This document shows, piece after piece, positions 530 through 60,492 of a DNA stretch of 64,000 nt. The position numbers and the translations under genes are program-made. The DNA is taken from NCBI GenBank assembly GCA_044892525.1, contig CM097887.1, positions 115,112,397-115,176,396 on the forward strand. The letters are read 5' to 3'. Positions within the stretch are counted from its first letter, which is position 1; each line of letters begins with the position of its first letter. The stretch comes from Schmidtea polychroa. Lineage: Eukaryota. Below the pieces are notes generated by a model. The model was not told where the DNA came from and made no database searches. It was given only the letters and a program-made list of their open reading frames with translations.

Positions 530-945
530 ACGATTGAAAGAGGAGAAAAGTGGATACGGGAATTAATAAAAGATATGTTAATAATAACGAACCCGCAACT
601 CAGACGTCTATGGCAACGAAAAGTAGCAAGCATGGAAGCTAGACAGCTATGGCACATCGTGTCAGGGATAATCCCAAAGTTAATCAAGGAGAAAACAAAA
701 ACCACTAAAACGGATTGGGATGAAACGAGGAGAGTAATCGAACAACTCACAACGAATGCAAACGATGATGAACACCATCTAGTAGTAATAACCTATTTGA
801 TGTATAATTTGATGGGATTAGCTGCAAGAAAAATACCCAATAAACAATTCGCAAACCACGTAGAAATGACAGTAGCAATCATAGAAAATACTATCGAACC
901 ACATATTATCCGTGCCGGAGGATGGAAGAGACTCATCCAAGCGCC
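530..945 (+). other. Bcl-2-like domain within the polyprotein
   Basis: BH2-like HIIRAGGWKRL (GGW at 917-925); BH1-like hydrophobic helix HLVVITYLMYNL; BH4-like WIRELIKDML in the upstream frame extension; all-helical pattern. Recognised by eye only. Confidence 0.5.
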
Positions 946-3900: not shown

Positions 3901-6871
3901 AAGTAAATCGTTTGAAAAACGACGAGAATTACCGCTAGCAAGAGAAATAATAACAATAAATCAAGAAGGAATGATACCGATCAACATCACGAATTTCGAA
4001 GAGGAAGACAAAATCATCTATGAGAATGAAAAATTGGGAAAATTGACCCCAATGATGGATATAGAACTACCAAAAGTGACCAACGACACAACCAAAAACG
4101 ACGAATTATGGACAATCGACAGTACATTGTTAACAGCTGCCGAAAAGAGAAAATTGCACCGATTGTTAGTGGAATACAAAGATATATTCGCCATCTCAGA
4201 TTTGGATTTGGGTACATGTGATGTCACCCTACATGCAATTCCACTGATAGATGAAACTCCAATCGCATTAAGACCATACAAACTAGCAGAAATGCAAAAA
4301 GAAATAGCTGAAGCAGAAGTGCAAAAGATGCTAGATGCAAAAGTAATCGAACCAAGTTGCTCACCTTGGCAGTTTCCAGTGGTCATGGTGAAAAAGAAAG
4401 ATGGCACGCAAAGATTCTGTATCGATTATCGAAAATTAAATGCAGTAACAAAGAGGGATACCTATCCATTGCCAGACATTAATGAAATGTTACTCATGTT
4501 GCAGGGGGCAGCATATTTTACTTCTTTAGATTTAAAAAGTGGATACTGGCAGATTAAAGTCAAAGATGAGGACAAAGAGAAGACCGCTTTCACTTTGGGG
4601 CGAGATCTATATCAGTTCAGGAAAATGCCATTCGGACTAACTAACGCACCAGCATCATTTCAAAGGTGTATGAACTTTGTCACTCATGGAATAAAACAGT
4701 GTATGGTATATATTGATGATTTACTAATATATTCAGCGACCTTTGAACAACATCTGGAGGATATCCGAAATGTATTTATTCGATTACGACAATGGAAACT
4801 CAAACTCAAACCTTCCAAATGCGATTGGGCAAAGGAAAAGGTTACGTTTTTAGGACACATAGTGTCAGCCAAAGGAAAAGAGCCAGACCCAAGAAACATC
4901 GAAAAAATAAAAACATGTCCAGCACCAAAAACTGTCACCCAAGTTCAGGAATTTCTCGGACTATGTGGATACTACCGTAAATTTATCAAAAATTATGCCG
5001 GAATTGCAAAACCAATCCAAGAACTGGTAAAGAAAGACATCTCATTCAGTTGGGGAAAAGAACAACAGGAGGCATTCGAGACGTTGAGAGATAAATTGAT
5101 TGAAGCACCAATCCTCGTACATCCGGATTTCAAGAAGCCATTTCTATTGGCAACAGACGCAAGCGGATATGCGGCCGGAGCAATTTTAGTCCAACTGGAT
5201 GACGAGGGAAAAGAGAGAGTAATTGGATATTACAGTCGAACATTCAAAAAGCATGAGAAGAACTATTCGGTAACAGAAAGAGAAGCATTAGCTATAATAC
5301 AAGCCATCAAACACTTCCGATATTTACTATGGGGACATGAGATATGCATAACCACAGATCATCAACCATTGGTGTGGTTAGGGCAACATAAAGAAGCGTC
5401 AAGTAGACTAATGAGATGGGCCATGCAATTACAAGAATACTCCCCATTTATAAAATTCAAAGCAGGAAGAGCAAATGCCAACGCCGATTGTATGTCAAGA
5501 TTTATTTTTCCAGATTTGGTGGATTCGGAAATGCAACGCATATGCTTAATAGTAGCGGAAGATTTGGACTTTTGCCAACTGCGAAAGGACCAACAAGAAG
5601 ACGCAGAATTAAAGCAAATTATCGATTATGTAAAAACAGGAAAAACCGAAGTGTATGCGAAAGACCAGAAATTAAAAGAACATATGGATAAACATCGACA
5701 TCGATACATTATAGATAAAGATTGGTTGCTAATAATGGATGGCGAAAAACGATTAATGTGCATACCGGAAAACAGACGAAAAGAGTTACTAACGCAATAT
5801 CACGATGGAAGATTGGGTGGACACATGTCATCAAAAAAGACTTTAGCAAGAATGAAACAGAAATATTTTTGGCCTGCGCTAACCGAAGACGTAACCGAAT
5901 GGGTGAAAAATTGTCTAACTTGTGCAACCAGGAAGAATACTGGATCGAAATGGAAAGCGCCGTTAACGCCAATGCCAGTACCGATAGAACCAATGACAAT
6001 GATATCAATGGACGTAGTCGGTCCATTACCCGAATCGGATAAAGGAAACGTTTATATTTTGGTAATTACGGATTACCTCACGAAATTCCCAGAGGCATTT
6101 GCTATGCCGGATCAAAAAGCTAAAACAATCGCAAATATCTTGGTAGAAGAAATATGTTGCCGATATGGAACGCCGAAGCAAATATTAACAGATCAAGGCA
6201 CAAATTTCATGAGTGAGATCATGAGCGAGGTGACCAACTACTTCAAAATCGCAAAGTTGAGAACATCACCGTATCACCCTCAAACAAACGGGATGACGGA
6301 AAGATTTAACGGAACACTTATCCAAATGTTGTCGAATTACGTCGACCGTCACCAACGAGATTGGGACGAATATATTAACCTATGTCTTATGGCTTATAGA
6401 ATGTCAATTCACGCATCAACAAAAATGAGCCCATTCAAATTAATGTACGGAAGGGAATGTAACATGCCAATGGACCTAGAATATCAACCACCAATATCGC
6501 AATATATGGAGATACACGATTATGTCACAAAATTCAAAGAAAGAATGCAGGAAATTTGGGAAACCGCGGGACTAAACATCAAATTCTACCAGGAAAGTTA
6601 TAAAGATTTACATGATCGAAAGAAAAACGTGAAGCAACATACCTTGCAGATAGGCGATTGGGTAATGATAGAAACACCAGAACTGATTCCGGGAACCACA
6701 AAAAAGTTACAACGAAACGGAAAAGGGCCATATGAGATCTTATTTGTAGGCGAAACTAACGTAAGAGTGAAATTGGTGAATAATCCGTTCACCAGGCCAA
6801 TATACGTAAATGTAGACGATGTAAACCAATCCCAAAAACAGCCATCAGTCAACCAGAAGGCCGTACGTTAA
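575..6871 (+). CDS. pol: Polyprotein: Bcl-2-like domain, internal signal, class III fusion glycoprotein, TM, tail, aspartic protease, RT, RNase H, integrase
   Basis: PR MIDTGANVSAI (~3484); RT PWQFPVVMVKKKDGTQRFCIDYRKLN, LDLKSGYWQI, MPFGLTNAP, YIDDLL (~4709); RH LATDASG, ITTDHQPL; IN H..H..CLTC, MDVVGP, TDQG, ERFN, GPYEI. The frame is open from 473. Confidence 0.95.
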   Translation: MLIITNPQLRRLWQRKVASMEARQLWHIVSGIIPKLIKEKTKTTKTDWDETRRVIEQLTTNANDDEHHLVVITYLMYNLMGLAARKIPNKQFANHVEMTVAIIENTIEPHIIRAGGWKRLIQAPRKNEQERSMQVRLKKLLNELEWELPMKDPASRKASINSLMMTMMIWMLCISGATGFTIYDCDNSVMRDRYSLRDIEECRQASPNKLDVVNKKVSYHVYQESDFIRTLAKECVVSKRVLAYYCGQYSYSTLILPGLDKEIVPIQSEDCKELFRTRAMRIRDGVTIHGQSGMIKTESIYVAGRVKSTDGTCNGGTYTIRGEAISGVVVIESYTVELKEYEAQFDANNYQMKTNPACRATENVCKTGVSTIIYEANTQKCRLQLLKSALFNEVKGEIYENEDDEDGNGKVRMRNGKPVLPSPKEKRLTTQKTPTALITDDPDLGMRFIRGKETTKCDSIVYKTNYAGIYMSRQIIDRAVGKIATEDVKLYLYANNKMDFLFHRGQTTLQKVYYDLIQNDCSLNKEILKTKLAIAITHPDNTMPSLPLPDGHFGRMVGEVMYTYACTKTFARMPEKPTIPPGKCANELEIRYKGQNRFVQPVTRIMNPLGFYPNLFNCSNAYGPLYERPDGKWIMLPVRATVEEPKKFGLIELATEQDFKPIDVSNGGMYSAADLETARLNILFPARRESILSNMVTITGGTNYQSGPNYELLLSPEHFQHATSNMMKAMWGRFLVFGQMMAGILGIILIIQIVRVILTQMLACFDIYKREKKVNWKMIVGFLPFLAKTMVLHRHSKDIHRIKRLIKILTKIKGTDEEIGRRFRKTMYDEATRRQLKKNKPKFLDRFRSQSSNSDSDDDDEGNHKYPYPSGHPKEKQIETAPYWEKDKTNTWIANGSYIPPDIVGQQAALTMTQNMYPQLPNQSGMNYMPTRRTRSVDQADDVRTIAAMSLPGGPAVTVMIQINGKETNAMIDTGANVSAIAINQIPSRYWKDIESTTIHIIACSKETVDVVGRWWTTLKYQDNEIETYLAVIPKLSVPCIIGTDLMPELLKEVVIDLTTMCLKDKTGRICTMNAIIRCPEKIIVPAKSQMICQIKVDTGMEGEVIFEPSKSFEKRRELPLAREIITINQEGMIPINITNFEEEDKIIYENEKLGKLTPMMDIELPKVTNDTTKNDELWTIDSTLLTAAEKRKLHRLLVEYKDIFAISDLDLGTCDVTLHAIPLIDETPIALRPYKLAEMQKEIAEAEVQKMLDAKVIEPSCSPWQFPVVMVKKKDGTQRFCIDYRKLNAVTKRDTYPLPDINEMLLMLQGAAYFTSLDLKSGYWQIKVKDEDKEKTAFTLGRDLYQFRKMPFGLTNAPASFQRCMNFVTHGIKQCMVYIDDLLIYSATFEQHLEDIRNVFIRLRQWKLKLKPSKCDWAKEKVTFLGHIVSAKGKEPDPRNIEKIKTCPAPKTVTQVQEFLGLCGYYRKFIKNYAGIAKPIQELVKKDISFSWGKEQQEAFETLRDKLIEAPILVHPDFKKPFLLATDASGYAAGAILVQLDDEGKERVIGYYSRTFKKHEKNYSVTEREALAIIQAIKHFRYLLWGHEICITTDHQPLVWLGQHKEASSRLMRWAMQLQEYSPFIKFKAGRANANADCMSRFIFPDLVDSEMQRICLIVAEDLDFCQLRKDQQEDAELKQIIDYVKTGKTEVYAKDQKLKEHMDKHRHRYIIDKDWLLIMDGEKRLMCIPENRRKELLTQYHDGRLGGHMSSKKTLARMKQKYFWPALTEDVTEWVKNCLTCATRKNTGSKWKAPLTPMPVPIEPMTMISMDVVGPLPESDKGNVYILVITDYLTKFPEAFAMPDQKAKTIANILVEEICCRYGTPKQILTDQGTNFMSEIMSEVTNYFKIAKLRTSPYHPQTNGMTERFNGTLIQMLSNYVDRHQRDWDEYINLCLMAYRMSIHASTKMSPFKLMYGRECNMPMDLEYQPPISQYMEIHDYVTKFKERMQEIWETAGLNIKFYQESYKDLHDRKKNVKQHTLQIGDWVMIETPELIPGTTKKLQRNGKGPYEILFVGETNVRVKLVNNPFTRPIYVNVDDVNQSQKQPSVNQKAVR
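1052..2950 (+). other. Env-like class III fusion glycoprotein (chuvirus/Monjiviricetes G, gB-like) within the polyprotein
   Basis: Signal-like INSLMMTMMIWMLCISGATG|FTIYDC. Cys pattern ECVV..YYCG, DCKELF, DGTCNGG, central helix NDCSLNKEILKTKLAIA, GEVMYTYAC, CANELEI..FVQPVTRI, CSN..P.Y..GKW, GMYSAADLE. TM FLVFGQMMAGILGIILIIQIVRVIL at 2774-2848. Confidence 0.85.
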
Positions 6872-6894
6872 CCACACGTTCGCAAACTTACCGA

Positions 6895-9438
6895 ATGAAC
6901 ATGATGCAACAGCTCGCAGAACCAACGACTGGACGATTGGGTATCCAACCATCAGAAGCTGAAAAGATTGTAACGGAGGTAAAGATTAAAATACCCGGAT
7001 GGGCAAAAGATAGACTAGACTTCGAAATATTAGGAGGACTATTGACAATGATCGAAAACTATGCAAACAGAGAAAGAACGCATCCGTTGTTACGAGTAGT
7101 CAAAAGCCAATGGCCGATATTATTTACCGTAACAGATCCTTATGGAGACACACCATTACATAAACTTATGAAAGTAGGCAACAACGAACAAATACTAGAG
7201 ACAATAGAAGCATTTCACGACTGCAATAGATCAACAGAACAAGAAAACAACCAGGGTTACACACCATTAATGATAGCAGCAAACAGAGGCAAAACAAAAG
7301 ACATTATAATCGCATTACTCGACACCGGATCAAAGATAACCACACAAGATCGTAATCAGAAGAACGCGCTGCATCATGCAATTGAAGGGAGAAGTTCCGA
7401 AGCATTCACGACGTTGATGGAACTACTAGCATATGAAGATAATCGAGAAGTCGGAAACATGTATGACGGTTTATTAACCGCAATCAAAGAGAAATTGACA
7501 ACAATTACCGGAATATTGATTACATGGAGAAATCCAATCAAAAATGATTACATGATCGACGTAAACGAAGCATTCACGAGAGGAGAGAACACGCTTATGA
7601 GAGAAGCCATGAAAGGACATCATTTATTCGAAATCCCAAATCAATTAATGGAACGAGGAATAAAATTCACAAACCATAAAGACGAACAGCTATTAAAAAA
7701 GCGAACTGACACATTCGAAAAATCCATATTCCAATTCGTTAACCAAGCACGAAATAAACATTGGGAAACAGTAAGTGTGCTATATATGATGGACACAATG
7801 AACAACATTCGCGAGAATTACTTAGATATTATTCAAACACTTACAGCGGAAGAACGAATCAATAATTCAACCAGTAAGAAAACAAAAATAAAGAAAGGAA
7901 CATCAAAAGAACCAAAGTCGCAAACGAATCAAATTGCAGCAAATAATGTCAGCAAAACGAAACCAAGAAATTTAGATCAAGAAACAATAATACGCAAAGC
8001 GAAAGAAGTATTCTTTGAGGAAATGCTAGAGTTATCAGACGAAATGATATTGGCTAAAATAATAAAGACCGTACACACATACGCAAGGGATCAAACAACA
8101 GAGTTGGATATCGGAAAAATCAAAACCTTCATGCCACGAGCATTTACCATGTTAACCAAGGATCAAAGAACGTCGTTACAACAGGCAATACTAGCAGCAA
8201 AGGAAAACCGAGCAATAACGATAATAAGAATCCTCAGAGATTTGGGTAAGGAAACCAACACGAAAAACGAACAACGCGAAACCGCCATGATGTATGCAGC
8301 TATAACAAAAATACACCCAAAAACACTCCATATACTACATCAATCAGGATCAAGACTGGATGAAAAATCAACCGAAGGGAACTCCACAATGGACTGGGCA
8401 ACCATACAGCCGAACCTAGAAATGATCAGGTTCATATGCAAAAATGCGACAAAGGAAGAAGTTGAAAATATTTGCAAAAACACATCTCATTTTCAGTGGA
8501 ATACGGTACGGGAAAATCTAGAAGCCATGAAATTATTATTAACATGGAGAGTGCCGCAAAGTAATAAATACGCGATTAACGTAAACGAATTTTATGAGAA
8601 CGGTGAAAACACAATGGTCAAAAATACATTAACTAAAGGGGGGACACCTAAGATCATACTAATTGTATTGAATAGAGAAGATCTGAGATTCACGAAAAAC
8701 CCAAACGAACATCAACGAATTGGAAAACACCGCCGTATACAACTGAGAGAACTAGTGAAGGAATGGAATCGGAAAAGACACGCAGCAACCGGGAGAAAAG
8801 AGTTCGAATTCGAGGCTAAACTAGCAAGAAACAGAGTACTAACAGCATACCGAAGATTATTAAACGATATAAATGTCGAGGACGACATTTTAAACGACAG
8901 CGGGGGAGATAAATTCGATGATAATGACGGAAAGGGTCGAAAAGAGGATAAAGAGAAAAGAAAACCGGAAGAGGATAACCCGGAAAACAAAGACCCAGGT
9001 ACGGGAAAGGACGGAAACAACCCGGGAAACAAGACGAAAGAGGAGGAAAAACCGAATAATGGAAAACAGAGGGTATGCCTACCTTTCACCAACAAAGAAA
9101 TAGAAACAAATATGATACTAATGATAATTGTCCTAACCATGATAGAATTAGTAACAGCCCATGGAGAGACGAGAACGTTAAAAGAGACCAAAGAAGCAGA
9201 GAACCACGACAACAAAAAGGAGGAGCTGAAGCCAGAAAAGAAAAAACAAGTACAAGAGCAACAATGGGATCTGAAGGAGGAGTGGGATCTAAAGGAAAGA
9301 TGTATACTGGGAAGATGCATGTCTAAAGCATATCGGAGATTAGTGTTAATGAACGAGGACACAGAACCGATAACGGAAGTGGGAATACAAGAAGCATACC
9401 AACACCGGAACGGGAAGAGAATAACGAAAGTTAAATGA
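6895..9438 (+). CDS. Ankyrin-repeat protein with two duplicated ANK modules; probably the continuation of the polyprotein (frame open from 6784)
   Basis: GDTPLHKL, GYTPLMIAA, KNALHHAI, RETAMMYAA, GNSTMDWA. Internal duplication: LITWRNP..IDVNE..GENT..FTNHKDE versus LLTWRVP..INVNE..GENT..FTKNPNE. Confidence 0.9.
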   Translation: MNMMQQLAEPTTGRLGIQPSEAEKIVTEVKIKIPGWAKDRLDFEILGGLLTMIENYANRERTHPLLRVVKSQWPILFTVTDPYGDTPLHKLMKVGNNEQILETIEAFHDCNRSTEQENNQGYTPLMIAANRGKTKDIIIALLDTGSKITTQDRNQKNALHHAIEGRSSEAFTTLMELLAYEDNREVGNMYDGLLTAIKEKLTTITGILITWRNPIKNDYMIDVNEAFTRGENTLMREAMKGHHLFEIPNQLMERGIKFTNHKDEQLLKKRTDTFEKSIFQFVNQARNKHWETVSVLYMMDTMNNIRENYLDIIQTLTAEERINNSTSKKTKIKKGTSKEPKSQTNQIAANNVSKTKPRNLDQETIIRKAKEVFFEEMLELSDEMILAKIIKTVHTYARDQTTELDIGKIKTFMPRAFTMLTKDQRTSLQQAILAAKENRAITIIRILRDLGKETNTKNEQRETAMMYAAITKIHPKTLHILHQSGSRLDEKSTEGNSTMDWATIQPNLEMIRFICKNATKEEVENICKNTSHFQWNTVRENLEAMKLLLTWRVPQSNKYAINVNEFYENGENTMVKNTLTKGGTPKIILIVLNREDLRFTKNPNEHQRIGKHRRIQLRELVKEWNRKRHAATGRKEFEFEAKLARNRVLTAYRRLLNDINVEDDILNDSGGDKFDDNDGKGRKEDKEKRKPEEDNPENKDPGTGKDGNNPGNKTKEEEKPNNGKQRVCLPFTNKEIETNMILMIIVLTMIELVTAHGETRTLKETKEAENHDNKKEELKPEKKKQVQEQQWDLKEEWDLKERCILGRCMSKAYRRLVLMNEDTEPITEVGIQEAYQHRNGKRITKVK

Positions 9439-10113
9439 AAAGAGGTGCACCTAGATAAAGGAGGCGAAGTAGTGATAACACAACTCCAACCAAGGAAAGA
9501 ACACAAAGTATGTATTTCAAGGCTAGGACCAGGCGAAGACTGTTTACAATATGTAACACAGCAACAACAGCCAAAGGAATACACGGTCTGTATCGTGAGA
9601 AAAAGACCAGAAAAGGAATGCCGACGATATCCTGGGAAAAGGGGGAAGAAAAGAAAGATCAATGACGGAGAAGACGAGGAAGGAAAACGCCAGAGGGTCG
9701 ATGAGAAAAACCAAGATAATTACGTATCAGAAGAAGAAATGGAAAAAATACAAAAAATGGCAAAAGAAGGGATCAATGAGGAAATAACAAGAATACGAGG
9801 GTTGAAGAAAGGTAAAAGTCAAACAGAGAAAGAGGGAAATGCAGAAACAGCGAGTACAGTGATAAACAATGGAAACTCAGAGATCATCAGCGTAAAACAG
9901 ATGATATGGATCAGCGGAATAATAATGACCGGAGCGTTCATAACTATTACGGGGGGGACGATAAAAATAATCCGAGATAAACAACAGCGTAATAAACTCG
10001 AAATGATCAGAGCCAGAAACTTTCAACATCAAGTAAAAAGGCCCAGTAAAATGAGTCAGGAACAGTGGATGGAGGCCTGGAAGACGCAGTGCCCTCCAAA
10101 TCCACAAATATAG
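9439..10113 (+). CDS. In-frame continuation of the ANK ORF after a single TGA; Cys-containing segment and C-terminal TM
   Basis: Same frame as 6895, separated only by TGA 9436-9438; no ATG at the annotated start (GTG); TM IWISGIIMTGAFITITGGTI at 9904-9963; homolog at 61216-61860 on the minus strand. Confidence 0.75.
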   Translation, partial: KEVHLDKGGEVVITQLQPRKEHKVCISRLGPGEDCLQYVTQQQQPKEYTVCIVRKRPEKECRRYPGKRGKKRKINDGEDEEGKRQRVDEKNQDNYVSEEEMEKIQKMAKEGINEEITRIRGLKKGKSQTEKEGNAETASTVINNGNSEIISVKQMIWISGIIMTGAFITITGGTIKIIRDKQQRNKLEMIRARNFQHQVKRPSKMSQEQWMEAWKTQCPPNPQI

Positions 10114-10254
10114 AAAGGGTTATAACTGTATATAGTTGTAAAAAGTAAGTATATCTTATGTATATAACAGTATCATATTTTTTATATAAGCGCGGTATTA
10201 ATAGTATATAACGGACGGGAGAAATAAACAATATAAAATTAAATAAGATAAAGA

Positions 10255-10638
10255 TTGAGGATGTATGTAAAATTAAGAATGGAGCAAAGAAATAACGAAA
10301 TAAATCGCAATACAACAACCGAAGATATGTGGAAGCAACAATGTGCTGGACTAGCACAACTAGTGTCAAATTTGCAGGAACAAGGACTTACGATGCAAAG
10401 AAACCTAGTTGATAGCCTAAACAAAGGATTTAGCTATTTAAAAATAATCGAGGAGCAGAGAGCAGTAATAGAACAGATGCAAAGAGAGATAGAGCGGATA
10501 ACAAGATACAGCCAGAGACAGGAAGAAGAATTAGTGAGGATGGCGGAAGAAGCAGAATACGAGGAAATGGAAGATTGGTCAGAATGGTTAATGAGTAGAG
10601 AAGAGGGCGGACAGGAGGCCGACTCTTCTGAACCATAA
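10255..10638 (+). CDS. Small coiled-coil protein with an acidic tail, unknown function
   Basis: 127-aa ORF with heptad pattern; conserved in the second copy (MWKQQCA.LAQL, DWSEWL, EEGGQEADSS). Confidence 0.8.
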   Translation: MRMYVKLRMEQRNNEINRNTTTEDMWKQQCAGLAQLVSNLQEQGLTMQRNLVDSLNKGFSYLKIIEEQRAVIEQMQREIERITRYSQRQEEELVRMAEEAEYEEMEDWSEWLMSREEGGQEADSSEP

Positions 10639-10704
10639 TCAAGGCCTAAAATTAAATGTAAATAACTGTAAATAAATATCGAACCTGTATCGATAAGAAA
10701 TTAT

Positions 10705-12111
10705 ATGTGTATAATTGTAGACATGGATAAACAAAAGAGAGAAGAGTTCAACGAAATCATCGAGTTAGTCAGAGATTCCGCAGCAATCAGAATACACAAA
10801 CATGTCATGTGTGGAATATGTGAAAAATTATTAAAAGAACCCCATCAAACCCAATGCGGATGCAGAGTGTGCAAAGAATGTATAAAAGAAACAATAAAAA
10901 ACCGACCACAGTGGTGCCCGATATGTAAAGAGACACTGATATCAAGTTTAGAAGATACTAATGAAGACAAAGCCGCGGTAAAGGACATGTTGAACACTAA
11001 TCTGGGATGTAAAAATACCCCATGTGAATGGAAAGGATCAATATGGAAAGTGAAACAACATCTGGTGGAATGTATGTACAAAGTCAGCCAGTGTGAACGA
11101 TGCCAGAAATTAATTCAAGCTAACGAAGAAAAGGAACATCAAAGTCAGTGTGAAGAAAGGTTGGAAAGATGCGAATATTGCGGAGAAGTAGACACATGGA
11201 AAAATCTCACCATCAAACATCACAATGTCCAAGAGGAAAAGGTATGTGCAGAATTCTGTGGTGAATGCCCGAACGGATGCAACAAAGGGGGAGTAATAAA
11301 ATTAGCCCAGCATCTAAAAGAATGCGAAAGGAAAAGAATGATATGCGTACTAGGCAAATGGGGGTGTCAGAAATTACTACACCGAGAAGACTTGCCACAC
11401 CACTTAACCGAAAATGTAATAACTCACGCAGAGATGTGGTCAACTGCACTACAAGACAGTGAAGAGAAAGTGCGACAAATGGAGATAGAAATAACCTCAC
11501 TGAAAGCATTAGTAAAAGAACTGCTAGAAGAACGAGAGGCTTTTGAACAAGCTCGAGCAAACATAAAAATGCAAATTAATCGAATGGAAATCAGTAACGA
11601 TCAGGCCAAAGTACTGCATCAGAAAATAAATGAAATCAATCTAAATGAGGTAATACCAACTGCACCGTATATATGGAAAATAACGGGAGTAAAAGAAAGA
11701 GTACGAAAAGCAAAAACCGGAGAAGATACAAGACTAACAAGCCCCGCATTCCATTCCTGGAAAAACGGATACAAAATGAAAATGAAGGTATATCCCAACG
11801 GGAACGGGACCGGATTAGATACGCATTTTTCGATCTTCTTTATGCTCTGCAAAGGGGAGTATGATGAAATATTAGAATGGCCATTCCAGGCAAAAATCGA
11901 TATTACACTAATGAACAACCAAAGTATACACGAGCAAAGCTTCAAAACAACGGGGAATCAAATAGCTTACCAGAGGCCCCTCAACGAAGAAGGAGCAGCA
12001 ACAGGAGCACCGACGTTCATTTTACAACAAAGGGTAGAAGATATGGCGAGAAATGATACCGTATATATCAAGATGACGGTTCGGAGGGAAGGAAAGAGTA
12101 GAACCGAGTAA
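10705..12111 (+). CDS. TRAF: Intronless full-length TRAF-family protein (RING, TRAF zinc fingers, coiled coil, MATH), TRAF2/3/5-like
   Basis: RING CGIC..QCGCRVCKEC..CPIC; zinc fingers CKNTPCEWKG, CERC, CEYC, CPNGC; MATH YIWKI..SPAF..GYKM..YPNGNGTG..THFSIFF..EWPF. Confidence 0.95.
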   Translation: MCIIVDMDKQKREEFNEIIELVRDSAAIRIHKHVMCGICEKLLKEPHQTQCGCRVCKECIKETIKNRPQWCPICKETLISSLEDTNEDKAAVKDMLNTNLGCKNTPCEWKGSIWKVKQHLVECMYKVSQCERCQKLIQANEEKEHQSQCEERLERCEYCGEVDTWKNLTIKHHNVQEEKVCAEFCGECPNGCNKGGVIKLAQHLKECERKRMICVLGKWGCQKLLHREDLPHHLTENVITHAEMWSTALQDSEEKVRQMEIEITSLKALVKELLEEREAFEQARANIKMQINRMEISNDQAKVLHQKINEINLNEVIPTAPYIWKITGVKERVRKAKTGEDTRLTSPAFHSWKNGYKMKMKVYPNGNGTGLDTHFSIFFMLCKGEYDEILEWPFQAKIDITLMNNQSIHEQSFKTTGNQIAYQRPLNEEGAATGAPTFILQQRVEDMARNDTVYIKMTVRREGKSRTE

Positions 12112-12304
12112 CCAGGGTGAATAATGTTGTATATAATAAATTTGTATATATCGGTGTATATAACCTATAAAATAGTATATAATAATAGTATGGGATCCAC
12201 AAACACAACAACCCAAAACTGAAGCGAAAAATCCAGGAAAAACATCAACCGAATAATAAAATCCAATAATGCGATGATATTTAATCAGAATCTATAATTT
12301 AGAA

Positions 12305-13360
12305 ATGACACAAGAGAAAACAACTGAAACTACGATGACCCCAAATGATACCAACAAGACACAAATCCCCAGAGAATATAGTGAGAAATGGAACAAGGTG
12401 ATGTTCCAATTAGCTAACCTCACCCGAAATCACATTGAGGAAGCCAGAGAGTACGAAACCCACAAATACCAATGGCTGGTAGACAATTTAAGAACGGAAG
12501 CGGAAACATGTAAAAGGGCCGCAAAATGGGCTTCGTTAGAAAATACTCGACAAGAATCGCACAGTCACTATCTAAAACAACTACTACAAGAATCGCGGAA
12601 AAGACTGACTGATGAGAATAAAAAACGAGAGACCGAAAAACAGAAAGAGGAGAAAAAGATGCGACATCTATTGGCAGAAGCACGAAAATGGAAACGACAG
12701 AACAGAGAAATGAGAAAGGAAATGAAGGAATTGCCTACGAGATTAGAGTACGAGAGCGAGCAGGGCAAATGGGAAGAGAACTTAGTTATAAAAGAGGAAC
12801 TAAAACGGCTAAGAAAGATCGCGGCTCGGAGCCAAACCTGGCAGACCAAGGCCATGGAGTTTGAAAGACATTTAGCCATGAAACTCTCCATAAGGGAGCA
12901 CGAGAATGCAGCGATGGAAGAATTGATACTCCAGCAGTCGGGGCGAGTCGGGGAATTAATAAATCAAGTCACCGAGCTAAAACGAGATGTCAATGGATAT
13001 CAGGGAGCTCTGGAACAAAGAAACATGGTATTGGTAGGAAAAAATAAAAAGCTAGAAAACGAAAGAAAAATGTATAACGAAAATCTCAAAAATTTGAAGA
13101 TAGAAATCGAGAAATGGAAGGGCGACGAAAAGATAGAAGAGTTTGATAGGCAACTAAAGGTAAAAGATGAGGAGATGAGATACCTCACCTACCTACTCGA
13201 CGAGGAACTGAATATCACAAGAGCCTTACTAGATGAAGTTCAGGAACTGAGGGCTCAAATTCCCCAATATTACATACCATATGACCCTATTGCCGTTCAA
13301 CTACAGGCAGCGGTCGAGAGCGATGAAGGATACGGGGGTCAGGAGGAAACCTTCGTATAG
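12305..13360 (+). CDS. Long coiled-coil protein ending in ETFV, unknown function
   Basis: 351-aa E/K/R-rich heptad ORF; its N-terminus is conserved at 58650-58921 on the minus strand (AEAEACKRAARWASLE). Confidence 0.8.
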   Translation: MTQEKTTETTMTPNDTNKTQIPREYSEKWNKVMFQLANLTRNHIEEAREYETHKYQWLVDNLRTEAETCKRAAKWASLENTRQESHSHYLKQLLQESRKRLTDENKKRETEKQKEEKKMRHLLAEARKWKRQNREMRKEMKELPTRLEYESEQGKWEENLVIKEELKRLRKIAARSQTWQTKAMEFERHLAMKLSIREHENAAMEELILQQSGRVGELINQVTELKRDVNGYQGALEQRNMVLVGKNKKLENERKMYNENLKNLKIEIEKWKGDEKIEEFDRQLKVKDEEMRYLTYLLDEELNITRALLDEVQELRAQIPQYYIPYDPIAVQLQAAVESDEGYGGQEETFV

Positions 13361-13534
13361 GGGCTAATAAAAACTTCAAAAATTCAGAAATTGGGACCTA
13401 TATCCCAAACAAAAAAAAAATTAATAGTATGGTAAAAGTATTTAAGGGACTGTAACCCTGTGTAAATAAAAACGATATAAATGTATAAGTATGAGTCGCA
13501 CTGTAGCGCATGATTAATTGTAAATATTATAGAT

Positions 13535-14239
13535 ATGAAGATTGAAGAGATAGTTGAACCCATGAGTGAAGTAGAAGAAGGAGAGATTATAATGGAAGTC
13601 GCAGAAACACAAATACTAAAGAAAGAATTACGAGAAGAGAAACGAGAAAACGAGAGATTAGTAAACAAATATATAGAAGATCGGAAGATAATTAAAGTAC
13701 TAAAGAAAGAATGCAAAATGCTAGGAGAAGTAAAGAGGGAAGCAGCAGAGAGAAATGAATGGCTGCAGGAACAACAAACACGAGGAAGAAATTGGGAAAG
13801 GATTGCAGAGGAATTATGGCAAGAGAGGGCAAGCTTCAAAGCAGAAGAAGTAATCCAAGACTACTGGAAAACAGAGGCGAGAGAACGCCAAACAACCATA
13901 AATAGATTAAATCGACAATTGGAGGAAAACCAACGAGAAAGTGAAGAAATGAAGAAATGGATTCGCAAATACAAAGAAATTGAGAGACAACAACAACAAC
14001 GAAACCCTCCACAGGAGAACGAACAAGATTTCCTAAAAATCGAGTTAAAAAGAAATCTTGACAAGAAACGAGAAGAAATAAGCAAACTAAAAAGGGAGAT
14101 AAGACACCTAAAACGGGAAGCCCGTGAAAAAGATCGGCAATTAGAGATGATGCCGGAATTAAGACACCGGGTCATTAAAGCGGAGTCTACCCTGATGAGA
14201 AATGCCGAAAATAATCCCAAAGGAGAACCGTCTAACTAA
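13535..14239 (+). CDS. Coiled-coil protein, unknown function
   Basis: 234-aa E/K/R-rich ORF, co-oriented and with the same A-rich codon bias as its neighbours. Confidence 0.75.
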   Translation: MKIEEIVEPMSEVEEGEIIMEVAETQILKKELREEKRENERLVNKYIEDRKIIKVLKKECKMLGEVKREAAERNEWLQEQQTRGRNWERIAEELWQERASFKAEEVIQDYWKTEARERQTTINRLNRQLEENQRESEEMKKWIRKYKEIERQQQQRNPPQENEQDFLKIELKRNLDKKREEISKLKREIRHLKREAREKDRQLEMMPELRHRVIKAESTLMRNAENNPKGEPSN

Positions 14240-14278
14240 AAGCAATTAAAGCCAGTGTAAATAATATAATAATAATAG

Positions 14279-14890
14279 ATGTATATTAGTACAATGCGGT
14301 ATGAAATAGTGATAACAGTAATGGTATTGATAAATCACCTGATGGAGAAACAACCATTAAATGCTCAACTGACAAGCATACGAGATCACCGCAATCGAAA
14401 TCAACAAGCCAAACCAGAACCTTGCCAATGCCAATACCCTAGTACAATAAAAACCAACATCCTCCATATAATCCAGTCAACTCGGTCATATGTTAATAAC
14501 GTCAGAAGTCTGTGCAAAAATCACCCCAGATGCCGAATGATGGACCGAAAAATACTCGAACAAGTCCAACACTTCGATCAGTTGGAACAACAAATACAAC
14601 AAGAAGTGTTCGAAAATCCGGCCGAGACAACAGAAACATCCTCAAATAACAGCGACACCCACTACCTTCTCTACGTAGTGGTCACAGAAACTATCTTGTT
14701 ATGCCTCATAACCTTCCTAAAAATCCTCGAAGTTAAGAAAAAATGTCAGAGCTCGAAATCTAGAGCCACAGTACAAAACCCAGCCGAAATAACCAATGTT
14801 ATCCAAACCACAAGCTCACCCAGATTAAACCATAAAGAATCTCCTCAACCATCGTCCAATCGCCCAGTCTACCCTAACACCAGTTCCTAA
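14279..14890 (+). CDS. Putative type I membrane protein
   Basis: N-terminal hydrophobic stretch (IVITVMVLI), four Cys in the predicted ectodomain, TM YLLYVVVTETILLCLITFL followed by KKK, S/T/P-rich tail. Confidence 0.7.
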   Translation: MYISTMRYEIVITVMVLINHLMEKQPLNAQLTSIRDHRNRNQQAKPEPCQCQYPSTIKTNILHIIQSTRSYVNNVRSLCKNHPRCRMMDRKILEQVQHFDQLEQQIQQEVFENPAETTETSSNNSDTHYLLYVVVTETILLCLITFLKILEVKKKCQSSKSRATVQNPAEITNVIQTTSSPRLNHKESPQPSSNRPVYPNTSS

Positions 14891-15499
14891 TTGTAGCAGC
14901 AAACCCCAACCAGAACCATCAGAGTGACCGAACAATGCCAGAACTGAACTAAAAACATTATGTTGTGAAAAACTTTGTTGTGTATATAAACCATCACCAT
15001 AAGTGATGCCTGCTTGGTCTTGATTTGACCTATATCTTATTAATAAAATTCTATTGATGTTTATAATTTTGTTAATCACTATGTTATCTTTTTATGAATG
15101 TGTTTATCTTTTTATGAGAGAGTAAGAGTAGCTCAAGTATGTAATTGCGGGACGCAATTTTATCGGGTCCCCGAGTGATTTGTTGGGCTGAGTCGAAAGC
15201 ATAATCGTCAAATTTAGGACAGATAAGACGCGAACAAATAAAATAAGACCACAAATTGCTAAAATAAATAAATCAAGAGACAAAAGAAACAATAACGTAA
15301 AATATTAAGATTAAAACAAAAAATAAAAAATAGAAAAATTAAAATAAGGTAATAAGATAAGGAATAAAATGACGAAAAATGCAACAAATAATGAGGAATT
15401 TAAGAAACAAATAAAAAATATATTAAAATAAAGAAAAATAAGGAAAAACAACCAAAGAAATAAGAAAAACAAATTAATTTAAAAGTTAAAGCGGTACTC

Positions 15500-15590
15500 A
15501 ATTTTGATTGGTCCGCATAAACAAAAAATTCCTATATAAGCAAACAGCAAATTCAATATAGTTACTGTTTAACAAACACCATTACAGGTA
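15500..15590 (+). promoter_or_regulatory. Putative Pol II promoter (LTR or internal) with first exon and splice donor
   Basis: ATTGG (reverse CCAAT) at ~15507, TATATAAG at 15533-15540, TAGTT Inr-like site ~28 nt downstream, CAG|GTAAGC donor at 15588. Confidence 0.5.
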
Positions 15591-17680
15591 AGCTCATAAT
15601 TTAAAAACTTACTGTTTAACAAACACCATTACAGATCAACACTCAACCATTACAGACGATCACCGACGTACAACCTAAACGACTATCAGGGACAATTAGA
15701 TTTTTAACTCAGTACAATAACCGAATTCAGCTTTTCGACTCAGCTTTTCGAGATCACAGATCGATAAAGAATAAAGTAAGGATGTATTCTTATTATGAAT
15801 TCGAGTAAATGTTTCTCATGGAAGTTAATAGTAATAATGTTTATTATCACAATTTTAATAAAATTTTAATGTTCTCTCCATTTGGTCTCATATTTTAATA
15901 ATCAAATAGTTTCAGTAATGAAATTTAAAACCTTTTATGATAGATAACTATGCATGATGATTTCGATTTTTATGGAATTTATATGAAAATTATGGTTGAG
16001 TAACGTGGAGTTGAGGAGACCTGTACCATGGTGTGAGGAGCCTTCGGGATCTCAGCCGGTGGGTACAGACTTCTTCAATCACGCAGCTGACGTGGGCCGG
16101 AAAGTGGGGGCTTCCTCACGGGTCCGTCGCTGAGGGAATTAAAATGTTGCAAGAATTAGCTGACAATAACATAGAATACCATTCGGATTGGAAGATGAGG
16201 ACGATCTTAAAATCCATGACTGAGGTGGCTACAAACGTTTATTTTTCAAAACCCATCATTCTTAGCTGTTACATCTTGAATTCTTTACCTAATACCCGTA
16301 ATCAGTCTGAATCGCCTAAGTGTGCCAATCGACATTCCATCTTCTGAGTACCAAACCCATTTCTGTTGAAATGCACGTCAATTTCCGTCTGACCTGTAGA
16401 AACTGAGTACCAACCCATTCGTCGACGCTATACAATCACATGAGAAGTATAGATGAAATTTATTGAACACAATTTTTTATTAAGAAAATGTATTACGAAA
16501 CTGTTTTATTTTTAACCAAATTATTTCGAAGTGTTCTGAAAATTACACTCACAGTAGGATAAACTCCCTTCAGTAAAGGACACCTCCGATTGACCTTGTT
16601 AAATTGCAGATTTTTCGAATAAGTCGAAGGAAATGTCCACGAAATAAAGTTATCCAAGTAGAAAACACAATTAACTGCACATCGCGGGGAACAAATCCAA
16701 CATTAGCGTTTGATGAGAGAGCAACCTAGATGACATATTGATTCCACGAATTGATTCGACCCAGTGGTGTATTGCGATCATCTGCGAACGATAATTCCGA
16801 TAATGAGCAAACATACGAGATAAATCACACGCACTAACACACTAGTACTTACTCACATATGCGACATGCAGTATTTTCCCAGTCAGCTACAAGTATTGAG
16901 AACCGAAATTAAAACACGCACAGACAACAAGGCTGGCTCGGATAGATAGCAGGCCGCCTGTCTCATGCTTCCATTATCTGGCATGACGAACTATTTTTCA
17001 TGAGATTGATCTTATTACAGGTGTTTCCCGACATATAGCTAATTTCATCGTAGATTAAAATTTTAACTTGCAGAATGGTAATTCCGAACATTAATAATAG
17101 ATAACGGCCAGGTGATTGGTGCATATTCCAAATAATTTGGTATTAAACGGGGACCCAGCAGCTATTGAGTGGAGATTAATTTTGCCTGCGCATCCGCTTG
17201 CCGAGGTGGGAATTCTGAGTTATGTCCTGGGGGAATAATGCGTTGGTTAAGGGGGAAATCGGAAGGCGTTAACAATAAAATTTTGTTTTCTGCGTTTGGT
17301 CTATTTCCAAAGATATTATTTGAAGGAATTATTAGTTATCGGCTCAATTTCGTTGTCCATTTTGTGTACAAGGAGGTTGGGCATCCCCGCATCTAATTAA
17401 TTACGAATTTGTTTTTGTTGTTTCTCCATTACACCAAGGGAAAGAGGGTCACGGCTTACAACTCGACCGGTAGATGACATTCGAATTTAATAATAATAAC
17501 TCAGAGATTTTCTTCACCCATTAGCATAAATCCCTTCCTCTTAATATATTAGGACCACATCAAAATTAATGTATAGCTTGTAGGAAAATTCATAGATGAT
17601 TAGGCCACCAGGCTGGTTTAAATAGACATAGCGAATCTTGTATTTTATCCTTATTGTTTCTTTCATTCTAGCCATTGAGA

Positions 17681-18430
17681 ATGTTACCAAGCTCGAAGTC
17701 GTCTCTCAAACCCTGCTTCTCATGCTCAGATAAGAATTCTATAATCAGGGATTTGCAAGCCCAGATCGGTCGATACAAGAAAGCGATCGACCATCTGGAA
17801 GGTACATGGTTCAGCCCAGTACAAATGAAGGAGGTACAAAAGAAATTGTACCGAAGCGAGCACTGTCGCGACGCCTTAATAAGCGAGAGTAGGGCCCAAC
17901 GCAGTCTTATCAAAGAGCAGTCCGAGGCTCTACACAAGGTCTACGTACAAGCGGCAGCAACTAGAAAGATAGTGAGTATACCTATCAATGGAGCGGACGA
18001 CCTTTTCCCCGTCCATCATGAACTTCCTTCCAATTCGTCATCTTCGGCTAAGAAGCCCTGCCGGGAATGCGTGGAAGCCGATCTCTCTCCCAGGTCAACC
18101 ATAGTGTCTCCCATTGGAGCCCAGAAAGGGTTATCATCGACCGCGTCTTCCTCTGTCGTACTATCAAACACCCTGATTGTTCCAAAACCCAAGCGTCGAC
18201 AGTTGTCCAGAGCTGAGCGTAAAAAGCGTCAGCGCGAACGAGCAATCGCCAAACAAAGTGGACTATCTGCCGAGCTCTCCAGTACTTCGAACGATCCCCC
18301 TGTAACGATCGATTTAACCGTAGGGATCCCAGGGCGAATCATCTCCGCCGCTGGTGTAACTTGGGAGGAGAATGCCTCCGAATTCTTCGAGCTGGAGGAG
18401 CTGTTAGCCGACGCAGAATGGGAAAAGTAA
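17681..18430 (+). CDS. Basic/Ser-rich protein with coiled coil, NLS-like cluster and acidic C-terminus; probably a spliced accessory gene
   Basis: ATG at 17681 lies 9 nt after a polypyrimidine-AG acceptor (17641-17671); PKPKRRQLSRAERKKRQR; AATAAA at 18567. Confidence 0.6.
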   Translation: MLPSSKSSLKPCFSCSDKNSIIRDLQAQIGRYKKAIDHLEGTWFSPVQMKEVQKKLYRSEHCRDALISESRAQRSLIKEQSEALHKVYVQAAATRKIVSIPINGADDLFPVHHELPSNSSSSAKKPCRECVEADLSPRSTIVSPIGAQKGLSSTASSSVVLSNTLIVPKPKRRQLSRAERKKRQRERAIAKQSGLSAELSSTSNDPPVTIDLTVGIPGRIISAAGVTWEENASEFFELEELLADAEWEK

Positions 18431-19569
18431 AGATCTCAATCCAATGCAACTACATCGATCATGTTTAGTAAATTGAACGATTCTGACTTATATGTTCTCG
18501 TAAACCGTCTTCCCTTGATTTATATTAGTCCTGTAGTTTTAACTGTATAGCGTACTATGATAGTAGAATAAAGAAATTTTCGTCATTTCTTATTGTCAGT
18601 TTTTGTTTGATTAGCCATTATAAAGGTTCAGAGTAGGTTTTACAACCCAAGCGCAAACTTTAGTTCGAAAAGCATTAGACAATCTGTATATAACTCGGTG
18701 TCAGGTAGGGAAGGAAATGGTGGAGTGATCAGACGTAAGCCCTTCCATCGGCAGTCAGAAAAAGGAAGTCGAGGCCTCAGTAAGGAGTAGTCCTAAGGTA
18801 GGGGCTCACCTGCTTACTGGTGTCTCGCCGGCATAGCACATTTCCAACGTGGAGCAATTCACGGGTGCTATGTTGGAGTACAAGTTGTGCGGGGTCTTGC
18901 TCCGGATTGACGTAAGCACACTTAGCGTAAATGAATGGACACTCATCTCCTAGACAGGTGCGTAAATGAGTTAAGGTCAATCAAGCACTACCCCAGCACA
19001 AACATGATTTAAAAGATTGACACCATCATGGAAAACAAGGGTCAAAGATTACCCAGGTAAAAAGTCCAAAAATTCAAAAGTCTTAGAAATTTTTCTGCAC
19101 ATTTGAACTTTTATTTTTTAAAACTTTTAAAAACTTAAATGAGTTTTTTCACTGTGTTTTAATACATTAATCAATATAAGAAGAGAATGATATATTAATA
19201 ATATATGTATTGTCATTTAAAATAAAAAAAAATATATTCAAACCGTGTAAAGTTATATATAGTTGAAAAGAGCAAACGAATATCTACAGATGACATATTA
19301 TTCAACATATGATCATATAAATTGAACAAGATATTAAAATTAAAATTTTTAAAAATTTCAAAAATAAAGTTTATAAAAAAATAAAGTTTTGATATGTTTT
19401 AGGGTATCACAAAACGAATATTTTTCATTAAGGAACAATATCTTTAAAATGACTTAAAACATGTTTACATGTCTTTGTTAGTCATGTATTAGTTAATCAT
19501 ACATTTAAACGTCTTTATTATTCGTGCACTTCTATTGCACATGTCTTTGTTAATCATACATTGAAACTC

Positions 19570-58630: not shown

Positions 58631-59128
58631 TATTATTAAAATATTAGTTCTCTTTTCCTTTCATCAAGTATTGGCTATGCATTTCCTGTCTAGTGACTTC
58701 TAACGATGCCCACCGAGCTGCTCTTTACAGGCTTCTGCTTCCGCGCGTAAATTTTGGATCAGCCATTGCGACTGGTAACAATCCCATTCCTTGCTTCTTC
58801 GATATATGTGCGGGTTTATTCGTTAGCTGGTACATTTCCTTGGTCCATTGAGTCTTGACTGCGTTGTTTGCTAGAGTTATTGGTGAGGGGGACTGTTAGC
58901 AACGATATTTTCTTGTGTCATATCTCTAGAATTTATATACAATTAATTTTCTTTCCAATTTCTTTACTTTTCCGTTATTTCATTATACGAAATCTCATTC
59001 AATTTTCGCTTGAATTTATTACATTTACGGTGCCTTGGGTGCCCCATACTATTATTATATACAACATTATTTGGTTATATATTCCGATATTTATAATTTA
59101 CAATATTTACAATTATGTCGATAACCGT

Positions 59129-60492
59129 TTACTCGGTTCTCCCTACGCCCTCTCTCTTGAATGATACCTTTATGTACAGTGTATCATCCTTCACCAATTT
59201 TTCGAATTCTTCTTCAATGATGAAGTTCAGCGCTCCTGTTCCTGGACCTTCCTGACATGTAGGTCTTTGGTAACATAGCTTTAAAACAATCCTCCTTGAT
59301 GGTTTTGTCGTTCAAAATAGCTAGGTTGACTTTTGCTCTGAATGGCCATTCCAAGATTTCGTCATTTTCACTTTTACATAGTAGAAAAAATATTGATGCA
59401 TGGGTTCCTCTTCCCGTACCGTCTCCGTCTAGGTATATCCGTATCTTCATTTTGTACCCATTTTTCCAAGACAGGAATGCTGGGCTTGATATTGCTCGCA
59501 CCTTGTCGTCCTTTGCCTCTTGGGTTTTTACTTTTATCCCTTACAATTTACATATGTATGGAGCTACTGCTCATTCCACTGCTTCCATTATTTGTTGACG
59601 TCTGTTTTCTATTTCCAAACTGTAATTGCTTGGATGTCATTACTCTCTCCATCATCTGTTCTCTGGCGTCCTCGAATGCTACTCGGTTCGCTAGTAGCTC
59701 TCGGGTTAGCACTTTTATTGAGGCTATTTCTAATTCCATCTGTTGCACTTTCTTTTCGTTTTCATGAGTTGCCTTAGCTCACATTTCCGTATGCGTGACT
59801 ATATTTTCGACCAAATGTTGTGGCAATTAATCTCTTTTTAGTTTTGTCCAGCAACTACATTTTTCCATAATACAAACTGTTGTACCCGGTTTTCCCACAT
59901 TTTCTAGATACAAAGCTATTTTTACTTTCCCTTTTACTTCACATTCGTTTGGACATATTTCCATATATTCTAGGCACACTTTCTCTTCCTACAAATTTTT
60001 GTGTTCGTTTTATATTTTCCTCCATAGGTCTACTTTTCCACAATGTTCACATCTCTCTTGTCTTTCTTCGCATTCTTCTTCGTGTTCTGTTACTTCAGTT
60101 AGTTTTACCACTTGTTGGCAAAGTTTGCATTTATTGACTTTATATCGACATTCTTCCACGTGTTGCTTTACTTTCCATATTGTTCCTACCCATAAGCAAG
60201 ACGTGTTTTTACATCCTATCTTTGTTTTCAATATATCTTTGATTGCTGCTCTATCTTCATGGGTATCTTTTACTGTTTCTATCGAAGCTTCTCCGCAAAT
60301 TTTATACAAATTTTTATACAATTTTTACACATTCTGCATCCACATTCCGTCTGGTGCGGTTCTTGTAGTAAATTTAAACACATTCCGCATGATACATTCT
60401 TGTGCATTCTGATCGTTGTGGTCTGGCGCAGGAATTCTATGATTTCTCTAGTCTGTTTTATGTTGATTATTCATTTCTATAATTATATACAT
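59129..60492 (-). pseudogene. TRAF: Frameshifted TRAF pseudogene
   Basis: CGMC..EPHQTECGCRMCKNC; GCKNTSCLWVG; SPAFLSWKNGYKMKIRIYLDGDGTGRGTHASIFF..EWPF; split across several ORFs. Confidence 0.92.

Follow-up and report, generated by a model that had tools for sequence, protein, structure and literature searches.

The spacers between the accessory genes of a giant retrotransposon in the planarian Schmidtea polychroa carry, on the sense strand, the octamer TGTAWATA (W being A or T), and this spacer motif is real and selected. The element lies within a 64,000-nucleotide (nt) stretch of contig CM097887.1 (assembly GCA_044892525.1, positions 115,112,397 to 115,176,396, forward strand), here called the window and numbered from its first letter. 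The predicted features, a fusion glycoprotein, Pol, ankyrin and TRAF, mark the carrier as a Burro-like giant Ty3/gypsy element. The octamer probably represents a binding site for PUF proteins, the family of Pumilio, and a slight preference can be given to the view that the spacers are RNA-processing junctions, as suggested by the arrangement of signals within them. An original prediction, made from the letters of the window, had read the octamer as a Pumilio response element through which individually terminated accessory mRNAs are controlled by PUF and Nanos. The cassette of accessory open reading frames (ORFs) is laid out as follows.

10114..10278 (+), candidate junction 1: TGTATATA at 10127 and 10159; AATAAA at 10223; AAG 1 nt before the ATG at 10279
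10279..10638 (+), accessory ORF A1, without a family: a further in-frame ATG at 10261; a single homologue elsewhere, P0008 (E 6e-7)
10639..10722 (+), candidate junction 2: TGTAAATA at 10657 and 10667; AATAAA at 10671; TTGTAG 2 nt before the ATG at 10723
10723..12111 (+), TRAF-like ORF (RING, zinc fingers, MATH; Pfam): in-frame ATG also at 10705
12112..12304 (+), candidate junction 3: TGTATATA at 12128, 12143 and 12155; AATAAA at 12255; TTTAG 2 nt before the ATG at 12305
12305..13360 (+), accessory ORF A3, no family at the Pfam cut-off
13361..13534 (+), candidate junction 4: TGTAAATA at 13461 (overlapping AATAAA at 13465) and at 13519 (abutting TTATAG, 2 nt before the ATG at 13535)
13535..14239 (+), accessory ORF A4, no family at the Pfam cut-off
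14240..14293 (+), candidate junction 5: ATTAAA at 14245; TGTAAATA at 14256; TAG 0 nt before the ATG at 14279 and 4 nt before the ATG at 14294
14294..14890 (+), accessory ORF A5, without a family: by eye, the N-terminus is hydrophobic, as is one internal stretch
14891..15139 (+), 3' region: TGTATATA at 14981; AATAAA at 15042, T-rich behind (T 0.57); purine tract near 15115-15132
58665..61660 (-), second copy, in a decayed state: identical at 65% of 1967 nucleotide columns; N gap at 60984-61153
61185, 60927, 60544, 60533, 60491, 59111, 59063 and 58941 (-), sense sites of the second copy, by pattern search

A pattern search of the whole window gave 38 matches to TGTAWATA against 12.4 expected, a number reached in 0 of 100 shuffles, and the 12 plus-strand and 8 minus-strand coordinates of the original prediction all proved exact. 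Its estimate of eleven sites in about 0.8 kilobases (kb), with fewer than one expected by chance, was sound: the six spacers from 10114 to 15100 (829 nt) hold 11 sense sites against 0.44 expected, equalled in 0 of 2000 per-spacer dinucleotide shuffles, and no antisense site. When the spacers are extended to the second ATG (919 nt), 0.66 sites are expected and 11 are found, with six of six spacers positive and again 0 of 2000 shuffles as rich. The second copy, said to keep the motif on its own sense strand, does so, with 8 sites in 428 nt of spacer against 0.45 expected and 4 of 4 segments positive. The proposed comparison with shuffled spacers therefore yielded enrichment in both copies of the window (0 of 2000 in each). 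In a global pairwise alignment of the copies, three sites are identical and one is switched from T to A at position 5 (12128 versus 59111); by MAFFT alignment, 278 of 591 third codon positions (47%) are identical.

Other parts of the prediction held in narrower form. A site follows each ORF from 10114 on, but the gaps 3' of the Pol frame (6872-6894) and of the ankyrin frame (9439-9738) have none. No sense site occurs in 13.4 kb of coding sequence, as had been noticed, but this zero is uninformative because only 0.56-0.60 sites were expected, and a coding depletion was rejected. AATAAA is present in five of the six spacers, in agreement with the earlier 'most', but its number (7 against 5.6 expected, 637 of 2000 shuffles) is not enriched. 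The site at 18685 and the ORF at 17681 were wrongly counted with the cassette, since both lie beyond the start, at ~15140, of the long terminal repeat (LTR). That ORF has a weaker A-skew (0.14 versus 0.35 in the cassette) and its own AATAAA (18567) with T-rich sequence behind, 118 nt 5' of the site, which is probably a chance occurrence.

Architecture of the spacers

When the accessory starts are right-aligned on the ATG, a common box, TRTAW-TT-N-TAG, is found, followed by 1-4 nt and the ATG. An AG ending 0-4 nt before the ATG is present at five of five copy-1 junctions (7 of 3000 shuffles) and three of three in copy 2 (191 of 3000), where it stands 2-4 nt before each of the three ATGs, and a YAG precedes the ATG in four of five (2 of 3000) and two of three cases (197 of 3000), respectively. 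The spacers together contain five examples of the fuller word TTNYAG, and in four of these an ATG follows at 2-4 nt (5 of 3000 and 0 of 3000 shuffles). Pooled over the eight accessory starts, the counts are 8/8 for AG, 6/8 for YAG and 4/8 for TTNYAG, whereas the 11 other ORF starts of the window have TTNYAG in none and YAG in one. The box is present at A3 and A4 without an in-frame upstream ATG, which counts against its being coding sequence. That some sites sit just before the next ATG had been seen in the original prediction, which missed the adjoining splice-acceptor-like box.

The choice of start codon bears on these distances. For the TRAF-like ORF, the homologue P0001 starts at the position equivalent to 10723, the second ATG; for A1, the first residues of P0008 resemble those at 10279 by eye, although the aligner placed them otherwise, and each of the two ORFs has one distant relative outside the window. 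The start of A5 is uncertain (14279 or 14294). At the preferred starts the AG-to-ATG gap is 1, 2 or 4 nt in eight of eight cases, and never a multiple of three.

In copy-1 junctions 1-5, AATAAA or ATTAAA starts 56, 52, 50, 70 and 49 nt before the ATG. Four of the five hexamers fall within an 8-nt window, 49-56 nt (7 of 1500 shuffles, with the window position scanned), and all five within a 22-nt window, 49-70 nt (6 of 1500); with AATAAA alone, the spacing is weaker (64 of 1500 and 39 of 1500). Because the hexamers keep a set distance to the next ATG, the idea of individually terminated mRNAs draws moderate support from their position and none from their number. Nine of the 11 sites begin upstream of the junction hexamer, one begins 11 nt after it and one lies in the acceptor box; the site after the last ORF is 61 nt before the AATAAA at 15042.

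The short gaps between the accessory ORFs (54-193 nt), on one strand and with a UUNYAG-type acceptor by the ATG, are features shared with spliced-leader operons. In parasitic flatworms, UUNYAG is the spliced-leader acceptor motif and operon gaps are at most 300 nt (PMC12582326), and a poly(A) hexamer upstream is a further likeness to flatworm operons (PMC12582326, PMC8629364). Two other accounts of the spacers were tried and rejected. Micro-introns at the pre-ATG boxes would have a GT..AG span of only 12-15 nt, too short for an intron, and read-through linkers meet stops in all three frames of each of the five junctions.

Contigs of four of 12 sequencing runs (X1, X2, X3 and X5) were compared with the cassette; no run is recorded as RNA, although X1 and X2 are guessed to be. 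In the part listed, which comprised 24 of the 1018 loose ends, 40 of the 1000 variants and 32 of the 8289 pieces, neither a leader nor a poly(A) tail was seen at a spacer. Three X1 contigs (12205-12715, 13421-13654 and 13486-13803) cross predicted acceptors, as DNA or uncut RNA would too. An X1 joint from 15329 to 10226, between two A-rich stretches, was given no weight, and the X2 loose end with a T-run at 15135 may be of genomic origin.

Identity of the octamer and competing explanations

Over the spacers of both copies the motif is counted 19 times, and any one-base variant at positions 1-4 or 6-8 at most three times; position 5 is A in 8 sites and T in 11, and the flanks vary. Fixed positions 1-4 and 6-8 around a variable position 5 are the profile of the Pumilio response element, for which the consensus is given as UGUAHAUA (PMC12687793). 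All 19 sites conform to that sequence definition and, taking the predicted spacers as untranslated, they stand on the sense strand of untranslated sequence above background. The exact octamer, the degenerate fifth base, the orientation, the untranslated position and the multiple copies are as reported for Pumilio elements of 3' untranslated regions (UTRs), NORAD, HSUR1/2 and SARS-CoV-2 (PMC12687793, PMC12441121); unlike those elements, the present ones are known from sequence, stand one or more to every gap of a retrotransposon cassette, and never have C at position 5. The Pumilio part of the original prediction is therefore the best fit by sequence profile. Its Nanos part is not upheld. Nanos-Pumilio elements have a U-rich extension 5' of the UGUA, and here T is found at -1 in 6, at -2 in 7 and at -3 in 4 of the 19 sites, against 30% T in the spacers. 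Musashi-type words (6 versus 6.4 expected) were rejected.

That the sites are a functionless by-product of AT-rich, slippage-prone spacers is already largely refuted, and is very improbable. The spacers are 68-79% AT, and some sites are short tandem duplications (10657/10667 and 12128/12143/12155), such that not all are independent, the second copy being moreover homologous to the first. However, 6/6 and 4/4 spacer segments are positive, the site densities of 12.0 (copy 1) and 18.7 (copy 2) per kb compare with 0.26 per kb per strand in AT-rich control DNA of the window (8 matches in 15.4 kb), which is 46- to 72-fold sparser, one-base variants are rare, and the A-rich LTR (15140..15820) has no site. 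A better candidate, though still unlikely, is a signal for the 3'-end machinery, either upstream as a CFIm-type UGUA element or downstream, next to the acceptor, as a GU-rich one. CFIm favours an A or U after its UGUA, the sites are paired upstream of poly(A) hexamers, with two overlapping AATAAA, and the pre-ATG copies of the motif are more degenerate and GU-rich. A CFIm enhancer, raised as an alternative in the original prediction, should enrich UGUA upstream of poly(A) signals regardless of 3' context, but TGTA followed by anything other than WATA shows no enrichment (11 versus 9.7 in copy 1, 5 versus 5.2 in copy 2), which argues against a plain CFIm element, and positions 6-8 are fixed. 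Nor does the octamer appear to be a general 3'-end signal, because three host-like genes within the window, including one paralogous pair, lack an exact TGTAWATA in the 400 nt past their stops, and because the portion of the Schmidtea mediterranea 3P-seq study considered here reports that UGUA upstream of the poly(A) signal, enriched octamers and a CFIm59/68 homologue were all absent (PMC5068929). Were the octamer a 3'-end signal after all, operon-like processing would stand and Pumilio control would fall.

Promoter function has to be weighed on similar grounds. Each spacer could be an internal RNA polymerase II promoter, in which TGTATATAA, TGTAAATAA or the A-rich hexamer would be TATA-like and the pre-ATG box an initiator, and internal promoters are known in foamy viruses and in Oikopleura Tor elements. 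The strand specificity of the motif, the A that follows it in 13 of 19 sites (creating TATATAA in many), the fixed hexamer-to-ATG distance and the resemblance of the copy-2 box ATATAGTTA to the sequence ~28 nt after the LTR TATA box all agree with this explanation, which is nonetheless improbable. TATAWAWR is at chance (3 versus 4.3 in copy 1, 2 versus 2.5 in copy 2), and the forkhead word RTAAAYA is mildly raised (7 versus 3.9, 6 versus 2.2) and covers the A form alone, such that neither of the promoter boxes suggested earlier accounts for both A and T forms. In addition, G at position 2 is fixed (19 versus 1 for A) whereas an ordinary TATATAA is used in the LTR, there is a site past the last ORF as well, and the conserved AG is left unexplained. 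About as improbable is a role of PUF elements on long uncut RNAs, either genomic or forming a nested set with ends at 15042 or within the LTR, where they would tune decay or localisation, shield the RNA from nonsense-mediated decay, or titrate Pumilio as NORAD and the HSURs do. A T-rich downstream stretch exists only at hexamer 15042, and 11 sites in 5 kb approach the ~18 of NORAD (PMC12687793). The first site is 13-18 nt past the stop codon in 4 of 6 copy-1 spacers and 15-17 nt past it in 2 of 3 copy-2 spacers, and two unrelated small gypsy elements of the window have two sites each within 110 nt past the gag stop. Against this, stop-proximal placement as a rule was rejected as not significant (P 0.06), the small-gypsy sites lie in an Asn/Val-rich pol-frame stretch and are weakened by codon shuffling, the copy-1 hexamer spacing goes unexplained, and shielding by PUF proteins from nonsense-mediated decay is without a source.

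A proposed mode of cargo expression

The preferred reading, PUF sites within RNA-processing junctions, leads to a joint model that is offered tentatively, at somewhat less than an even chance: operon-like junctions would give separate cargo mRNAs under host PUF control. We infer PUF binding, cleavage, splicing and repression from the sequence. A junction would begin with the stop codon, followed by between one and three Pumilio elements; next would come a poly(A) hexamer, ~50 nt short of the ATG, and then a weak acceptor and the ATG itself. Part of a long LTR-driven transcript would be cleaved and polyadenylated in the spacer, and the downstream gene would gain its 5' end by splicing at the acceptor. 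The processing signals would have to be leaky, because some full-length RNA has to survive; flatworm operons consist of host genes, unlike this cluster inside an LTR element that needs uncut RNA too.

The leader could come, with about even probability, from a host spliced leader in trans or from the ATG-free LTR leader in cis. Trans-splicing is known in planarians and Macrostomum (PMC10899757, PMC8629364), and flatworm leaders end in AUG (PMC12582326). Since in no case can the distance from AG to ATG be divided by three, such an AUG would be out of frame at all eight starts, unlike in flatworm operons, which argues against trans-splicing and is neutral for splicing in cis.

Complex retroviruses and the adenovirus major late unit splice a leader in cis to downstream acceptors. 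Retroviral subgenomic RNAs share one 3' end, unlike the present arrangement, where a separate poly(A) signal may exist in every gap. In the ta-TRIM elements of Echinococcus, the LTR is spliced in cis to an ancestral trans-splice acceptor (PMC4558846), and the likeness here would consist of donor-like sites behind the LTR TATA box, an ATG-free leader and acceptors before the downstream ORFs.

Each cargo mRNA would end in a short 3' UTR offering UGUAWAUA to a host PUF protein, and with nine of 11 sites upstream of the hexamer, most would fall in such 3' UTRs. PUF proteins repress through CCR4-NOT (PMC3868585), which makes repression in stem or germ cells the default guess: the PUF protein would most likely recruit CCR4-NOT, damping the cargo (the TRAF-like protein and four proteins of no assigned family) in Pumilio-rich stem or germ cells.

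Several observations weigh against the model or parts of it. With regard to the octamer, C occupies position 5 in 0 of 19 sites, the predicted unpaired probability of the sites is 0.17 versus 0.18 for the spacer background, and in SARS-CoV-2, conserved PUM2-bound elements are reported to have a negligible effect on progeny (PMC12441121). In a MAFFT alignment of the copies, 26 of 40 motif columns are identical compared with 177 of 316 other spacer columns, so that the motif is just slightly better conserved; this weak column-wise conservation, together with the switch at one aligned site, suggests that the motif persists partly by turnover. With regard to the acceptors, the frame of the AG-to-ATG gap tells in part against the model, A1 has AAG, a poor acceptor, and in-frame upstream ATGs at A1, TRAF and A5 mean that the box could be coding there. 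Four of the 19 exact octamers lie in the acceptor box (13519; 60927, 60491 and 58941) and would be lost from the mRNA, and near-matches to the octamer occupy the box at other starts. With regard to 3' ends, the T-rich stretch downstream of hexamer 15042 (T 0.57) contrasts with T 0.20-0.35 at the internal hexamers, and planarian cleavage sites are described as U-rich (PMC5068929). The 49-nt spacing depends on the choice of 14294, of two candidates, as the A5 start, and hexamer spacing in copy 2 is weak, at 1 of 3 by the strict definition (719 of 2000 shuffles) and 2 of 3 with AGTAAA admitted post hoc (135 of 2000). Finally, all family counts rest on two copies, both inside the window, because outside loci did not turn up.

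DjPum is said to be essential for neoblast maintenance. If the model holds, a host stem-cell regulator could be named as a control on transposon cargo, beside the Piwi-interacting RNA pathway; the TRAF-like and other cargo would be kept low in stem cells and released on differentiation or stress. A protective effect of Burro1 cargo on planarian stem cells is reported (PMC13465017). The model makes base-level predictions for the starts and ends of cargo mRNAs, testable with existing planarian RNA data and RNA interference. A bolder version is unlikely, namely that the five-gene cargo would be a true operon with each cistron tied to host Pumilio, the uncut RNA would double as a decoy like NORAD, and PUF recruitment would be shared by the LTR elements of this genome. 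NORAD and HSUR1 and HSUR2 of herpesvirus saimiri are PUM decoys (PMC12687793). In the literature searched, PUF elements or operon-type processing in such retrotransposons were not described; an earlier description is possible, a 2026 study of Burro1 and Grohme 2018 lying outside the search.

The carrier element and its surroundings

The remaining parts of the element, and the site beyond it, are as follows.

575..6871 (+), polyprotein frame (Pfam; frames): weak Bcl-2-like stretch, fusion glycoprotein, protease, reverse transcriptase, RNase H, integrase
6895..9438 (+), ankyrin-repeat frame (Pfam Ank_2, E 9e-20)
9739..10113 (+), final frame ahead of the cassette, with a copy-2 homologue at 61243-61413
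15140..15820 (+), probable 3' LTR, end uncertain: GATTGG 15506, TATATAA 15533, CAG/GTAAGC 15588, TTACAG 15629/15650, AATAAA 15770, GTAAGG 15776
18685..18692 (+), single TGTATATA outside the cassette, beyond the LTR

By the features tested, with an Env-like protein ahead of protease, reverse transcriptase, RNase H and integrase, and with ankyrin and MATH cargo, the element is of Burro type. In the polyprotein, PF24664 (the Monjiviricetes-type fusion glycoprotein; E 4e-71, amino acids 430-769) is followed in frame by RVP, RVT_1, RNase H and rve. The Bcl-2 match ahead of the glycoprotein is below the Pfam cut-off (E 0.038), though in the expected place; ankyrin and MATH are above the cut-off, and no BIR domain was matched by Pfam in the part of the element inside the window. 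The element extends upstream beyond the window, and its polyprotein carries frame breaks. The frame at 9739..10113, with no acceptor-like box before its ATG, is probably the tail of the giant polyprotein. Burro/GYPSM1 elements of planarians likewise have a Bcl-2-like domain, an Env-like fusion protein in frame ahead of the enzymes, ankyrin, and MATH/TRAF cargo, which may form an accessory ORF of its own (PMC6431247). There, MATH/TRAF is part of ORF1 in S. mediterranea and of an upstream ORF in D. tigrina, unlike here, where TRAF and four ORFs of no family lie downstream of Pol and before the 3' LTR (PMC6431247). The portion of that review considered here is silent on spacer motifs and does not address how the accessory ORFs of Burro-type elements are expressed (PMC6431247).

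The start of the LTR is marked by contig loose ends at 15135-15143 and by raised contig depth over 15078-15745. Its GATTGG at 15506 is a CCAAT box, and its stretch 15560-15775 has donor-like sites and no ATG (P 0.06). A 26-nt direct repeat surrounds the donor-like CAG/GTAAGC at 15588 and the acceptor-like TTACAG at 15629, which would give a 47-nt intron, and the donor-like GTAAGG stands directly 3' of the AATAAA at 15770. Rfam gave 0 matches in 9400-19400. Among metagenome contigs, the TRAF and A1 alignments gave 35 and 371 candidate stretches, respectively, with none confirmed as an outside locus; in viral contigs, searches with the Env region, the Pol region and the 20-nt spacer block described below gave no outside locus. 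A search with the Env region gave no full-length relative among 4349 candidates.

The 20-nt block at 12175-12194, in junction 3, is identical in both copies and ends in TAG-T-ATG; it could represent another acceptor box or the decayed remains of a small gene. It opens a mini-frame (12175-12203 on the plus strand, 59063-58960 on the minus strand) of 10 codons in copy 1 and 27 codons in copy 2, and TAG-T-ATG and AAG-T-ATG also open mini-frames within 13361-13534. In other copies, a 3-nt length variant is found in the A-run at 13411, which leaves the true end of ORF A3 and its distance to the site at 13461 uncertain.

On the minus strand, the two small gypsy elements with gag frames at 33812 and 41849 have four post-gag sites against 0.70 expected (6 of 2000 shuffles); with a codon-shuffle null, P is 0.02 jointly and 0.055 and 0.175 singly, and PUF sites behind their gag stops are a lead only. 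The stretches with these sites, 32701-32900 (-) and 40645-40844 (-), are an Asn-rich pol-frame linker, and the gag proteins have a common end, MIGA. In the first element, a slippery-type heptamer, CCCAAAA, precedes the gag stop, and the 294-nt LTRs are 99% identical.

Beyond the LTR of the large element, the ORF at 17681-18430 (+; 249 amino acids, no family) belongs to a separate repeat, with raised contig depth over 17750-18417. Three intronless paralogous ORFs of 208-230 amino acids, with hydrophobic ends and no Pfam family, lie at 21764-22450 (+), 44295-44987 (-) and 47438-48064 (+); the first two are 87% identical and the third is about 27% identical. Near-perfect palindromes of 110-215 nt, found by self-BLAST in AT-rich DNA at 19985-20198, 20638-20770 and 44064-44174, are possibly miniature inverted-repeat transposable elements.

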